A stretch of 32,000 nucleotides of DNA. Origin: Candidatus Altimarinota bacterium (lineage in GTDB: Bacteria; Patescibacteriota; Gracilibacteria; UBA1369). Where the stretch lies: NCBI GenBank assembly GCA_041659405.1, contig JBAZYK010000009.1:30001-62000 (forward strand). Reading direction: 5' to 3'. A program made the position numbers and the translations under genes. Below the pieces are notes generated by a model. That model made no database searches. It was not told where the DNA came from and saw only the letters and a program-made list of their open reading frames with translations. Positions 13,042 through 22,691 of this stretch are shown here, one piece after another. The stretch's first letter is position 1, and every line of letters begins with the position of its first letter.

Positions 13042-14358
13042 TTAACTTGGCTCTTTTACTTTAGCAGGCTCTTCTGCAGTATTAGCGGCAATTGGTTCTT
13101 TAGACGTTTCCACCGGAGCCCCCTGTCCATTTAGATATCTTCCAAGAGCCCAAATTTTAACGTGTGCTTCAGTTTGCGGTTTTAATTCTTCAGCTTTAGC
13201 TCTTGCTCCAGCCTGCCAACCCTGTGCCTTTATAATCTCTGCAGTATGAACAGAATTTTTAATTGGTTGATTTTGCAATTCTATTAGCTTATTTGTTGCT
13301 GTTAAATAACCTTGCCCGTTTTCCAGTGATAATGCCAATACTTTTTGATCATCCGGACTGGAAGCCATAGCTTGAAAAGTTTTTTTCAACGTTGCATCAA
13401 TGTCAGTCTTTTGTTTTTCCGCAGCCGCTTTTATACTTAACAGTTTAGGATCTTTCAAGTCACCTGCACGATTAAATTGCTCAATCATCTCAACCAAAAC
13501 TCCATTTTGATCAAGCAGAGTAGAAACGTTTTGAGCCAGTTGTGCACTTCTTTCACCGACCAAATCGTTAAACGTTTTTTCGTTTTTTCCAGCAGCTGAA
13601 TCGCCAACCATCTTTTCACGTCCTTTTACTAATGCATTGATAGCTGCCGCATGATTAGGTTCATCTAAAAAGCCATTCACGTCCTTAAGCGCGTCATCAC
13701 CTTTTTTCACCTTACTATCCAGATTATTTGTAAAGGCTTCGGCCGCCTGATCAAATTGATCCACCTGATCATGAACTGACTGATAAAGTTCCTGATTATC
13801 TTTTTCAAATCCTGGGACCAGTAGACCATCCAACTCGGCAGCATTTAAAGTAAGTTCCGCCCCGACTTTTTTCATGATTTCCACTGCATGTATATCCAAT
13901 CCCTTCACCATTAATTCCTTGAAAGCTCCATCATTTTTAGCAAGTGTGGCCTTAAGTTCGGTCTTTTTATCCACAAATTTTTCCAGTCGGCGATAATTTT
14001 CCGTGTTTGCCACAATTTCAGCCAAAGCTTTATTACGCGCTTCCTCAATCTCTTTGCGAGCCTGTTTATCAGCATCTGTCCCCTCTTTCGGAAGCTTTCC
14101 TAAAGCAATTTCAGCAATAGAAGTAATTTCTGCATTCTGACCCTTGATAATTTCATCAGCATTAAATTCTTTTTCAGGAGCCAAAATATCTTTTTGAATC
14201 CGTTCCGTGGCCTCTACCATATCTTTTTTAACCTGTTCAGTATCGGGCTTTTGACCTGCAGTTTCAGCTGGACCGGCCACTTGAAAAACCAGGCGATTAT
14301 TCAAAAATGCTGGTAAATTAGTCGCCCCACAATGCCGAAATTTTTTAAAATGTAACAT
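13042..14358 (-). CDS. orphan 'long' family protein (RLVFQ N-terminal motif), 438 aa
   Basis: N-terminus MLHFKKFRHCGATNLPAFLNNRLVFQVAGPAE aligns with five paralogs. The rest is K/E/A/D-rich helical sequence with a P/E/A-rich tail. It starts 3 nt after the upstream gene. No TM helix or Sec signal. Confidence 0.75.
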   Translation of the reverse strand: MLHFKKFRHCGATNLPAFLNNRLVFQVAGPAETAGQKPDTEQVKKDMVEATERIQKDILAPEKEFNADEIIKGQNAEITSIAEIALGKLPKEGTDADKQARKEIEEARNKALAEIVANTENYRRLEKFVDKKTELKATLAKNDGAFKELMVKGLDIHAVEIMKKVGAELTLNAAELDGLLVPGFEKDNQELYQSVHDQVDQFDQAAEAFTNNLDSKVKKGDDALKDVNGFLDEPNHAAAINALVKGREKMVGDSAAGKNEKTFNDLVGERSAQLAQNVSTLLDQNGVLVEMIEQFNRAGDLKDPKLLSIKAAAEKQKTDIDATLKKTFQAMASSPDDQKVLALSLENGQGYLTATNKLIELQNQPIKNSVHTAEIIKAQGWQAGARAKAEELKPQTEAHVKIWALGRYLNGQGAPVETSKEPIAANTAEEPAKVKEPS

Positions 14359-14361
14359 AAA

Positions 14362-19878: not shown

Positions 19879-19955
19879 TACATCAAAAACAGCGCGATCT
19901 TGCGCGACATGGGCCACCACCACCTCACGCTCTCACCACAAAACAAGCTGGACTT

Positions 19956-22691
19956 TTATGTTTCTCTAATTCTTTTAACTGTCTCAATCATTTGCGCAAA
20001 GTTGCCGGAAACCCCTCCAGTTTGCGCTTTTCTGCCATTTACAAAATAATGGAGCTGATTATTTTCCAGCCAAACAAATAATTGTGTTGGGCCAAAATTG
20101 CCCCAATCAAGTGTCACATTAGCAACCTGCTCAACCTTATTATTTTGGTCGATCTTAAAATTTATAATTCTGCCAATCGCCGCCCGTTCATTATTGTAAT
20201 TGTAGGAATTGGTAATGGTATCAAACAGAATTTCGTGCTGTGAAGCCGTATCTATAGTTTTGAAATGCTGATCTTCTTCAGCCCACGCGCGAATATGTTT
20301 CATTTTTAGGGCAAATTCCGGCAGACTTTCCGCCACTCCTTCACGCATAGAACCGCCATCATAAGCCACATTTTCACGATTAACCCTGTAGCCAATGCGA
20401 CCAAATGGCAAAGCCCGAACATCAACCTTTGCATTTGGATTATTCCAATCCAATTCTACGGTGTAATCATAAGGCGGAGTCTTTTCGGTCTTCTCCACAT
20501 TGCGAACTGTCCCCGTTACTTTTTCGTGTTGTTCAAATTGGTACTTTGATCCAAGCACTTTCAGCATGACTTTTTGCAAAGCTGAACCATCATTCACCGC
20601 GCGTAAAACATCTTCTTTGCTGTTATAAGGTTCCTCAAGTTCACCACCATTATAAGAAATTTTATATTTTCCATCAGGCATTCTAAAAGCACGGAACGCC
20701 AGCATGTAGCCATTAAATAGCAAATCAAAACGTGCTCCATCGGGTTTATCCGCATAAGCATCAATTGCTCTAAGTTGATAAAGATAATTTGGATTTATCG
20801 GTTTTAAATTTTCATGATTTTTTTCAAATGCCGCTGTGATTCTTTCAGGGCTGACCGAAGCACCTTCCGGCGTTCTTGTTTTTTCCTTGGGTCGAGGCTT
20901 TTTCATAACCCAGTCGTCGCAAATCATATGGCTATGATCGGCATAGTCTACTTTGTAATAGAGTTTCCCATTTACTTCCCGTGCCGGATTATTTGGATTA
21001 AATAATGTCATTTCTTCTCCGGGTGCAACTGTCACTGTGCGATCAATCTTGCCTTGTTCCGTCCTGAAATAAACAATATTTCCGGGCTTAATTACAAGCT
21101 TCCCGGTATATCCCGCCAAATCAAATTTTGTAACTTCGTGTCCTTTATCCCAATCGCGTGCAATTTCATCAACTGATTCCACTGGTCTTTCGGCAGATGC
21201 CGCAGGTGTAGAAGTTGGAGTAGCTGTTGGGGCATTAGTAGGCGCAGTAGTTGGGGCCACGGCTGGACTCACTCCAAGAGCAGAAGCACCTTTTTTGCCT
21301 GCAGCCTTCTTTCCGGGAGCTTTAGCCTGCACATCCGCAGGGGCTGGCGTCACCACTTTGACTTCAGTAAGAATCCCGGCAGTTGCCAACTTTGGAACCT
21401 TTGCGGCAGGATTAACGTGCCCCTTGTCCAAAGTAGCCCTGATAAGATTGTTCGCTTTGGCTTCCACCACTTTGTTTTCCAATAGATCAAAACCATCCTT
21501 CTTAATTTTTGCCTTAATTTTTGCATCATCATTCAAATCCAACATTTCTTTAACTAACGGATACAATGGATCATTAATATCAATTTTAAATTGCTCTATT
21601 AATTTTCTAGCCGTGTCATTAAAAGTTGCAATATTTTGCCTTAAAACCGTCAATCTTAATTCTTTTTCCGCCTCTTCCAATAAGTTTCGCGCGGATACTT
21701 CGGAATGAATTTTATCAAGTGTCTCAGGCTTCATAATATCTTCCACAACTCCTCCATGAATAAAATCAAACTTCAATTCACTTTGCAATTTTTCAGCTTT
21801 TCTCACGAAAGCCTGAATTTGCCCTTTGCTGATCTCCACTTCCGCTAATGAGTCCGTTAAAAGAGGAATATCCAGTAGCACCTGTTTGTCAGAGCCCCAA
21901 CTTCCTCTCCCTTTTCCTTTTCCGGATGTAGCATCTTTTATTTGTTCTAAAGTATCCTCACGAAATTCATCAAATTTAGCCGGGAATTTCTTTTTTGCGC
22001 CGTTAAAAAGGCCTACAAAATAAGCTTTTTCACGCGCGTCCAGGTTCAGATGGGAAAGCTCCTGTTCATATTCGGCAAAATTGGCGATTTTTTTAACCAC
22101 ATCGGTATCCAGCTTTGTCCCCATGGTCCAACCCTCACTGGATTTATCAAATGCCGCTTTAAATTTGCCATAAGCCTCATTAGCAGAGGCCTTATCATAC
22201 ATTCCTAAGCCCGTAAGATACCCAACAACAGATTGATAAGCTTCCCCGTCTTTGTCAGTGCCTTCATAGTCATCAATGCCACCATCTTTTGGTTCAGCCA
22301 GCTCTTCTGCATATTTTACCGCCTCATCAAATTTGTTAGCCTTATTTGGAACAATCTCACTATAAAGTTTATTTAAATCATCGCTTACTTCACGAATCAA
22401 TGCCTTTTTATCTTCCTTTTCTTTAAGATCTAACCCTATGCTTTTAAGCTGGTGTTTGTCTTTCAACTTGCCAATTTTAGACTCGATTGATCTTGGATTT
22501 GGTCCTCTTGCGGTTGCCAAAGTACGAATACGTTCAGCCGATTCATTTACGGCTTTATCAAATTCCTGTTTAGAAAAATCCGGCTTCTTTTCCAGTTCAG
22601 AAACTTCCTGAGTCACATATGCCTGTTCACGCGACTGCTCGGGTTTGTTTTGAAATACGAGTCTGTTTGGTGAGAAAAAATGTATTTTCAT
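19956..22691 (-). CDS. orphan 'long' family protein, giant member (RLVFQ motif), 911 aa
   Basis: N-terminus MKIHFFSPNRLVFQNKPEQ, then ~430 aa of helical K/E/D-rich sequence, a P/T/A-rich linker (aa ~446-500), and a beta-rich C-terminal region with an internally repeated unit (LDWNN / LDWGN ... [YF]xxNG/DGG + helix). Confidence 0.8.
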   Translation of the reverse strand: MKIHFFSPNRLVFQNKPEQSREQAYVTQEVSELEKKPDFSKQEFDKAVNESAERIRTLATARGPNPRSIESKIGKLKDKHQLKSIGLDLKEKEDKKALIREVSDDLNKLYSEIVPNKANKFDEAVKYAEELAEPKDGGIDDYEGTDKDGEAYQSVVGYLTGLGMYDKASANEAYGKFKAAFDKSSEGWTMGTKLDTDVVKKIANFAEYEQELSHLNLDAREKAYFVGLFNGAKKKFPAKFDEFREDTLEQIKDATSGKGKGRGSWGSDKQVLLDIPLLTDSLAEVEISKGQIQAFVRKAEKLQSELKFDFIHGGVVEDIMKPETLDKIHSEVSARNLLEEAEKELRLTVLRQNIATFNDTARKLIEQFKIDINDPLYPLVKEMLDLNDDAKIKAKIKKDGFDLLENKVVEAKANNLIRATLDKGHVNPAAKVPKLATAGILTEVKVVTPAPADVQAKAPGKKAAGKKGASALGVSPAVAPTTAPTNAPTATPTSTPAASAERPVESVDEIARDWDKGHEVTKFDLAGYTGKLVIKPGNIVYFRTEQGKIDRTVTVAPGEEMTLFNPNNPAREVNGKLYYKVDYADHSHMICDDWVMKKPRPKEKTRTPEGASVSPERITAAFEKNHENLKPINPNYLYQLRAIDAYADKPDGARFDLLFNGYMLAFRAFRMPDGKYKISYNGGELEEPYNSKEDVLRAVNDGSALQKVMLKVLGSKYQFEQHEKVTGTVRNVEKTEKTPPYDYTVELDWNNPNAKVDVRALPFGRIGYRVNRENVAYDGGSMREGVAESLPEFALKMKHIRAWAEEDQHFKTIDTASQHEILFDTITNSYNYNNERAAIGRIINFKIDQNNKVEQVANVTLDWGNFGPTQLFVWLENNQLHYFVNGRKAQTGGVSGNFAQMIETVKRIRET

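Follow-up and report, generated by a model that had tools for sequence, protein, structure and literature searches.

A conserved N-terminal head motif on diverse proteins encoded with small helical partners in Peregrinibacteria: a candidate docking peptide

The C-terminal peptide of FtsZ sits on a disordered linker and binds the membrane anchors FtsA, ZipA or SepF. The encapsulation peptides of bacterial microcompartments (BMCs) and the cargo-loading peptides of encapsulins are portable terminal tags on unrelated cargo. Specialised secretion systems pair substrates with small helical partners, among them the class I chaperones of type III secretion systems (T3SS), the LXG toxins and Lap partners of the type VII secretion system (T7SS) of the T7SSb kind, and the WXG100 proteins. 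Cyclin RxL/Cy motifs (e.g. of the RRLVF type) and the RVxF motif of protein phosphatase 1 (PP1) are eukaryotic docking motifs that bind helical domains as extended peptides, at a hydrophobic patch that includes an acidic residue. Here we describe a short motif, the head, at the N-terminus of six proteins encoded in a 32,000-nucleotide stretch of DNA (the window; positions 30,001 to 62,000 of contig JBAZYK010000009.1, assembly GCA_041659405.1) from Candidatus Altimarinota bacterium. The genes of the six head-bearing proteins, here called H, alternate in one cluster with those of five small proteins of 104-130 aa, here called S. All positions below are window positions unless another locus is named, and all H and S genes of the window lie on the minus strand.

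The largest H protein, g911 (19956-22691; 911 aa), carries its head at residues 1-13, MKIHFFSPNRLVF (22653-22691). The others are g121 (17940-18305; 121 aa; head residues 1-22, MGKIKYLQFGSNITFLPARTIF, 18240-18305), g268 (16775-17581; 268 aa; residues 1-20, MKTFLQSKFNLGVLAKRLVY, 17522-17581), g210 (16100-16732; 210 aa; residues 1-21, MKNLNCRQLVGYSKMEKRLVM, 16670-16732), g207 (15081-15704; 207 aa; residues 1-16, MKTLLFHNYRTQRFVY, 15657-15704) and g438 (13042-14358; 438 aa; residues 1-25, MLHFKKFRHCGATNLPAFLNNRLVF, 14284-14358). Their starts at 22691, 18305, 17581, 16732, 15704 and 14358 are those given in an earlier note made from the DNA alone. The regular expression R[LFT][VI][FYM][QA] has seven matches in the six-frame translation of the window. 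Six are these N-termini; the remaining one overlaps the start of g438 in another frame. Six N-terminal matches are thus observed in the set of 35 window proteins, where composition predicts 0.009. Since the expression was composed after the data had been seen, replication elsewhere is the real test.

The motif does recur in related genomes, where the earlier note had proposed to look for it. A syntenic cluster in GCA_020049755.1 (L001), with a g911 orthologue of 35-39% identity, bears it on four of five counterpart proteins; the fifth has a weakened head, HNLIF, with Asn in place of the Arg. It also occurs at the loci L003, L005-L007, L010-L016, L019 and L021. These loci were gathered with the S proteins as bait (66 matches in 5.8 billion proteins), by contig look-ups and by scans of collections. 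Altogether about 45 head-bearing proteins were found at 14 loci in Peregrinibacteria/Peribacteria metagenomes, so that the six proteins first noticed prove to be part of a family of at least 45. A profile of the six N-termini, run against the 5.8 billion proteins, matched only g121 and one close relative; so few matches indicate that the motif is too short for database-wide detection. A distant occurrence, L019, has unrelated surroundings (murB, a type IV secretion system (T4SS) pilin-like gene and a recombinase). Here a divergent S gene (P0071) is followed after 4 nucleotides by an H gene for a 1398-aa TPR protein, which starts MDFFRENRLVW and continues with a Gly/Pro-rich linker.

Alignment of 41 heads on the Arg (position 0) refined the consensus. 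The Arg is present in 37 of the 41, followed at +2 by V (31) or I (6), again 37 in all, and at +3 by F (30) or Y (10), which together account for 40. Upstream, position -1 is K or N, -2 is P (13/41) or E, -4 is F in 20/41 and otherwise W, V, Y, L or M, and -5 is F, G or L. Position +1 is L (19) or nearly anything. Conservation ends after the aromatic residue: +4 is variable (Q10, E5, F4, A3, D3, K3, V3 and others), as is +5 (N/A/V/T/G/D), and P, G, E and A dominate positions +6 to +11. The core is best written phi-F-x-[P/E]-[K/N]-R-x-[V/I]-[F/Y], a tag of about 10 residues (F-F-x-P-x-R-L-V-F) whose Arg invariably falls at residue 9-23 in the aligned heads. The consensus first proposed, R-L-V-F-Q, therefore captured a real motif but overstated its last residue, since Q is found in only 10 of the 41 heads; R-x-[VI]-[FY] is the appropriate form. 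Similarly, the stretch described as P/E-rich does follow the motif as a linker, but its composition is G/P/E/A-rich.

The motif is strictly N-terminal. A position-specific scoring matrix built from 39 heads and scored over 294 open reading frames (ORFs) gave family N-termini 15-36, bar three divergent heads: an 826-aa protein of L021 (6.9), a 389-aa protein of L001 (3.5) and a 1312-aa protein of L005 with a doubtful head (-4.5). Three members outside the training set scored 15.8-20.0. Unrelated N-termini reached at most 5.1 and internal positions, over 83,198 residues, at most 13.0. The motif Arg is encoded by all six Arg codons, so that selection acts on the peptide and not on DNA or RNA; a nucleotide-level element or translational signal was ruled out on this ground. 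When window proteins are paired with their L001 orthologues, identity amounts to 24 of 45 positions in the head core, 30 of 100 in the next 20 residues, and 25-37% in the bodies.

Behind the head, the H proteins have little in common. When head and linker were removed from 37 head-bearing proteins, the remaining bodies fell into at least 19 groups without a BLASTP link. The positional orthologues g121 (121 aa) and L001 14145-15800 (551 aa) share the head and the first ~100 residues; to judge from such pairs, H bodies gain or lose hundreds of residues quickly. In g911, head and linker are followed by a helical domain (~21-440), then by a second linker, rich in P/T, and at the C-terminus by a beta-rich domain. 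A full HMMER search with g911 against 1.84 billion representatives returned 53 relatives only, all via the C-terminal domain. Their N-termini are of two kinds: some are heads, and the others share a conserved start of their own without a head, M[A/P]ENLQEQLDQRI.... Several large headless homologues share this start in the longer form M[A/P]ENLQEQLDQRI...V..DV..AY (L006 1726-5067, L007 4107-7526, L016 3239-6961, P0073, P0076, P0089 and P0093), which may be a second kind of N-terminal module of the same system. Forms with and without a head can be aligned over the helical domain, at an offset of ~13 residues, so that head and linker resemble an add-on. Together, the 19 or more unlinked body types and the occurrence of g911-body homologues with and without a head indicate that the head is a portable add-on. 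As to the g911 body itself, residues ~500-600 (window 20100-21200) are beta-rich and look SH3b-like, and Pfam SH3_3 matches 3 of 40 family members at E>=0.024. A close relative, P0004, has an extra copy of the SH3b-like segment at residues ~480-600, followed by three ~65-residue repeats of beta strands and then a helix, with conserved W/G and of no known family.

These observations bear on one alternative, that the head plays no particular part, or serves as a generic degron, and is just the slowly evolving N-terminus of rapidly diverging paralogues. All carriers are indeed encoded in one cluster, as tandem paralogues would be, and the window paralogues show a weak second common motif (EKPD and a helix) after the linker. 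However, the head is kept over deep divergence while the bodies become unalignable, it occurs on the TPR protein of a distant lineage, its position is strictly N-terminal, and homologues with the same body lack it. We thus regard this explanation as distinctly unlikely.

Hydropathy and inspection of the 41 heads bear out that the head is no signal of the Sec, Tat, lipoprotein or prepilin kind. Within the first 45 residues of the six window proteins, the maximum 12-residue Kyte-Doolittle mean is 0.32-1.12, whereas the SLH protein encoded in the same window has a Sec signal with a mean of 2.03; both the missing hydrophobic core and this contrast had been pointed out in the earlier note. The longest uncharged runs are mostly 5-13 residues, broken by R/K/E, unlike a type I Sec signal, in which a basic n-region leads into ~10-15 unbroken hydrophobic residues and an AxA-type cleavage site, and a Sec-like N-terminus is also absent in 52 of 54 g911-family sequences checked, the exceptions (P0088 and P0099) looking like miscalled starts or fragments. 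Tat signals have an h-region after S/T-R-R-x-F-L-K, whereas RR occurs in only 2 of the 41 heads and the single invariant Arg is followed directly by a polar G/P/E-rich linker. No lipobox, [LVI][ASTVI][GAS]C, was found in the heads; where a Cys is present (e.g. MKNLNC..., MKNLHC...), it lies at residue 5-10 without a preceding h-region. A G-F-T-L-x-E motif or hydrophobic helix of class III (type IV) prepilins is seen in 0/41 heads. Double-glycine leaders, with GG at a fixed distance behind an amphipathic LSxxELxxIxGG helix, do not fit either. GG stands at variable distance (2-15 residues) in some linkers, five of the six window proteins lack it and g438 has only a single Gly after Ala (A-G), and a C39-ABC transporter is absent from the annotations of the related loci.

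The earlier note had also considered a leader removed by a dedicated protease, and compared the head with 3C-type FQ| sites and with the LQFF|A leaders cut by Prp. The head is indeed N-terminal, short and rich in aromatic residues, like the extensions of L27 and of phage capsid or scaffold proteins that Prp removes, which also sit on otherwise unrelated proteins, and a cut after the conserved F/Y would be compatible with the sequence. The 3C-like proposal falls with the Q, which follows F/Y in only 10 of the 41 heads; the position behind it has N, A, V, T, G or D, where 3C-like sites have G, S or A. The likeness to L27 fails as well, since the core F-x-x-x-R-x-V-F/Y differs from the leader end ...LQFF|A, nothing is conserved after the F/Y and hence neither the scissile bond nor a P1' preference, with +4 and +5 both variable, and none of the head-bearing proteins is ribosomal or of a phage. 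Among the window ORFs scanned there was no peptidase-type match in Pfam or NCBIfam, Prp (Peptidase_Prp/DUF464) included, nor was there any in the precomputed annotations of the related loci. Moreover, a leader that is discarded needs no long flexible linker behind it. A cleaved leader is therefore highly improbable.

The partner family provides a more attractive lead. The five S proteins of the window are all-helical and mutual paralogues: s118 (18351-18713; 120 aa, true start MPYYYPIQ), the operon's first gene product; s114 (17589-17933; 114 aa); s116 (15735-16085; 116 aa); s130 (14686-15078; 130 aa); and s104 (14362-14676; 104 aa), whose stop lies 3 nucleotides ahead of the g438 start. S and H co-occur, with their genes interleaved, in all loci gathered, L019 included, which confirms the short helical neighbours as a genuine co-evolving partner family. 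The most conserved member, s118, is 82% identical to its L001 orthologue, whereas H orthologues are 27-38% identical. Conservation so far above that of any H protein is the pattern expected of a shared receptor. An AlphaFold2 model of s118 (mean predicted local distance difference test score, pLDDT, 84) is all-helical, with a small N-terminal helical bundle and a long helical hairpin; a Foldseek search against the PDB gave no match. By sequence, a set of 31 S proteins has scattered weak Pfam matches (FliG_N in 5/31 at E>=0.11). In the PDB, engineered protein A repeats match at E 8.5e-5 (with no single stretch significant) and alphaRep/HEAT repeats at E about 0.02-0.1. We rejected these PDB matches as homology and take them as a resemblance of helical repeats only.

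Several S proteins end in elements of another kind. A C-terminal transmembrane (TM) tail anchor preceded by basic residues is present in L003 6502-6930, L012 6395-6838 and L014 1661-2083; a KKFFGLF, KKLFGIF or KKFLGIF tail in s130 of the window (...KPERKKFFGLF), L005 9608-9991 and L016 12644-13024; and an amphipathic basic end, LFQKLRAFLKKLF, in L005 14829-15209(-). The basic-hydrophobic tail of s130 is likely a membrane-targeting tail, and the C-terminal elements of this subset suggest that the S family is attached to the membrane. Since the basic residues precede the TM segment, the helical S domain is placed in the cytoplasm. With some S proteins membrane-anchored in this orientation, assembly of the module would take place on the inner membrane face.

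We infer that the head binds a partner, and tentatively propose that it is a docking peptide that recruits H proteins to S adaptors on the cytoplasmic side of the membrane, a reading that we hold to be quite possible, if short of probable. Of the three roles that the earlier note had considered, docking onto the short helical neighbour is the best supported. The head would be a portable short linear motif, joined by a flexible G/P/E-rich linker to diverse, mostly helical or coiled-coil bodies. The invariant Arg, together with the aromatic and aliphatic residues around it, would contact a common receptor; the peptide would be extended or form a tight hairpin, a helix being disfavoured by the Pro and Gly of the core. 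The receptor would most likely be the co-encoded small helical S proteins, which are the best candidate because they co-occur with H, are encoded next to it and include s118 with its hub-like conservation. With the linker in between, bodies of any size could be attached to the receptor, and S paralogues with a TM segment or basic-hydrophobic tail would bring H proteins to the inner membrane face. The neighbourhood of femAB, ftsA, ftsZ and mur genes hints at a role in envelope or division, weakly so, since synteny in these genomes extends over the region as a whole.

The overall design is reminiscent of the FtsZ peptide. Both consist of a short, conserved, basic-hydrophobic terminal peptide on a flexible linker and a partner with a membrane element, here the TM or KKFFGLF-type tails of S, and the S/H cluster lies beside ftsA-ftsZ. 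However, the head is N-terminal, its F-x-P-x-R-x-V-F differs from D-I-P-x-F-L-R with no homology between them, it is carried by many proteins and not by one, and its binding is a proposal. A physical analogy can also be drawn with the cyclin RxL and PP1 RVxF motifs, in which a basic residue precedes aliphatic and aromatic ones; it pictures how R-x-V-F might lie on a helical S protein with its invariant Glu residues. Conserved acidic residues of s118 are E20 and E53-E55. Identity with either was rejected, as these motifs are eukaryotic, the RVxF spacing does not fit and a homologous receptor is missing.

Two other modes of recruitment have to be weighed against docking onto S. A basic-aromatic peptide could insert directly into the bilayer, and the composition of the head (K/R with F, L, V and W) is like that of membrane-targeting sequences such as those of MinD, FtsA and SepF. 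The near-invariant Arg, the fixed R-x-V-F spacing and the Pro/Gly in the core, however, speak for specific protein recognition and not for an amphipathic helix, and it is the S proteins that carry membrane-binding tails; we consider direct insertion very doubtful. Alternatively, the head might bind another hub such as FtsA or FtsZ, or other heads, whose beta-pairing would build a membrane-associated coiled-coil scaffold, with the S proteins as separate components. Actin folds of the FtsA/PilM type do bind short terminal peptides (the FtsZ C-terminal peptide; the N-terminus of PilN), the ftsA-ftsZ and femAB neighbourhood is conserved in all Peregrinibacteria loci, and H bodies are long and helical or coiled-coil. 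Against this, region-wide synteny makes adjacency to ftsAZ weak evidence, and the S-H pair of L019 has no ftsAZ nearby. This alternative is unlikely.

Several observations also weigh against docking onto S itself. Support for the putative contact between head and S consists of co-occurrence and gene adjacency, and S has no significant similarity to a known peptide-binding fold, its HEAT/alphaRep/FliG_N-like signals being weak (E about 0.01-0.1). S and H genes are not in a 1:1 ratio, and g911 is parted from the nearest S gene by femAB. The AlphaFold2 model of g911 leaves residues 1-19 without structure (pLDDT 23-31) and unpacked against the fairly confident helical domain (21-440), but the underlying alignment held only three sequences, so that a disordered head is weak evidence. 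The bodies that we call unrelated may in part be diverged paralogues whose similarity is hidden by fast coiled-coil evolution, and the census of heads covers the gathered loci. Finally, P/T-rich linkers and a possible SH3b-like domain, as in g911, are more typical of extracellular proteins.

This last point leads to the export alternative, in which the head would direct proteins into an undescribed route of non-Sec export or surface targeting, with S proteins as cytoplasmic chaperones or membrane adaptors that pass the substrates to a translocon encoded elsewhere. A portable N-terminal tag with flexible linker on diverse large proteins would suit such a role, and so would the fast-evolving bodies of changing size (121 aa against 551 aa in orthologues). 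Small helical proteins encoded directly upstream of large ones recall secretion chaperones, as in T3SS and in the LXG-Lap pairs of T7SS; the likeness to the specialised secretion pairs extends to the size of the helical proteins (~100-120 aa), to the variability of the large ones and to an N-terminal recognition element. The P/T-rich linker and weak SH3_3 signals of g911 and a T4SS-pilin-like gene nearby in three loci can be counted on the same side. The Peribacteria are, moreover, reported to encode many large extracellular proteins (PMC4736985). The genome paper describes large, cysteine-rich proteins that are exported, along with an S-layer, sortase, type II secretion and pili, and makes no mention of the S/H cluster (PMC4736985). 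H proteins, however, contain at most one Cys each, in contrast to the cysteine-rich exported proteins so described (PMC4736985). At no locus is a translocon, ATPase or peptidase conserved in or beside the cluster, and membrane-anchored S proteins suit stable adaptors better than soluble chaperones. The Pfam models for WXG100 (PF06013) and LXG (PF04740) match neither the 31 S nor the window H proteins at E<=1, and an FtsK-like gene (EssC/EccC-type ATPase) is absent from the loci examined. The segment SIHSLLDEG had suggested a link to EsxA/WXG100; BLASTP against EsxA gave no alignment and the lead was dropped. Overall, we judge export to be a live rival, if a rather unlikely one.

When comparing the H/S module with BMC and encapsulin cargo, there is a similar arrangement of a terminal peptide with a poorly conserved linker, and cargo genes adjoin those of small receiving proteins. 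The peptides themselves differ: whereas BMC peptides are amphipathic helices, the head has Pro at -2 (13/41) and Gly near -5 inside its core. H bodies are coiled-coil and not enzymes, and no shell gene (BMC-H/P or HK97-fold Pfam families) is present in the window or the related loci. Neither H nor S has a relative above noise in Pfam, NCBIfam, PHROGs or PADLOC, or in the PDB by sequence or fold. A phage or defence origin was likewise rejected, there being no phage or defence signal and no IMG/VR relative. The H/S module is, as far as its sequences tell, an undescribed, lineage-restricted two-family system, and a member of none of the known systems compared here.

The S and H genes are interleaved within one tight operon (18713 down to 13042; intergenic gaps of 2-45 nucleotides) in the order of transcription s118, g121, s114, g268, g210, s116, g207, s130, s104, g438. 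The region's best promoter-like match, a sigma-70-like TTGAGT-17-TATAAT with TG (18742-18770, minus strand; 10/12, a consensus match only), lies just upstream of s118, within the 80-bp divergent gap to a gene for a FemAB-family aminoacyl-tRNA-dependent peptidoglycan bridge transferase (18793-19878, plus strand). The gene g911 is upstream of the operon, with femAB in between. Def (22839-23333) and the convergent ftsA-ftsZ pair (10397-12968; ftsA 10397-11635 and ftsZ 11784-12968, plus strand) flank the cluster. At every locus examined, femAB is divergent from the S/H operon and ftsA-ftsZ convergent with its end; we list femAB and ftsA-ftsZ as context, which does not imply that femAB belongs to the system. 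A ParE-family toxin gene (PF05016, E 1.4e-10) is found at 9695-9979 (+), between a 5'-3' exonuclease gene and ftsA. Genes for small T4SS_pilin-like (PF18895) membrane proteins lie ~6-10 kb from the cluster in the window (7182-7553, +) and in L003 (17641-18108); in L019 such a gene is located at 1275-1694, ~0.7 kb upstream of the distant S-H pair.

In the public annotation (locus tags WC843_04895 to 04940) the products are hypothetical proteins throughout. Gene calls by NCBI, JGI and ENA have the start codons used here. An alternative call for g207 at JGI (P0125, 193 aa) is 14 residues shorter and would start at the Val of RFVY; at L021 10394-13204, the NCBI call starts at the GTG of RLVY, and an upstream ATG would give MYTKFIKIFDEILKPARLVY. 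Gene callers thus sometimes start inside the motif, at the GTG of its Val, and public protein sets partly hide the head. The NCBI record, of a metagenome-assembled genome, is labelled Gracilibacteria, a group known for reading UGA as Gly. We dropped an alternative genetic code as TGA is a rare stop (TAA 22, TAG 10 and TGA 2 among 34 window ORFs) and no ORF is TGA-interrupted under table 11; the standard code also suits the nearest relatives with a name, Peregrinibacteria/Peribacteria.

Candidate phyla radiation bacteria make up a large part of bacterial diversity, and most of their lineage-specific genes have no assigned role. The H/S module offers a searchable signature that is conserved across Peregrinibacteria between FemAB and ftsZ-ftsA and has no relative in curated libraries; the starts called inside the motif partly conceal the tag in databases, which is of consequence for annotation. 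At its boldest, and with little confidence on our part, the module might be an undescribed protein-addressing system of the Peregrinibacteria, in which a tag of ~10 residues on a leash and small helical receptors, some of them tail-anchored, bring a changing cargo of coiled-coil, TPR and beta-rich proteins to an envelope or division scaffold, or across the membrane independently of Sec. If the head is indeed an address, whether for docking or for export, it would represent a new bacterial way of sorting proteins, and tag and receptor would be testable in E. coli, giving an experimental handle on organisms that are unculturable.

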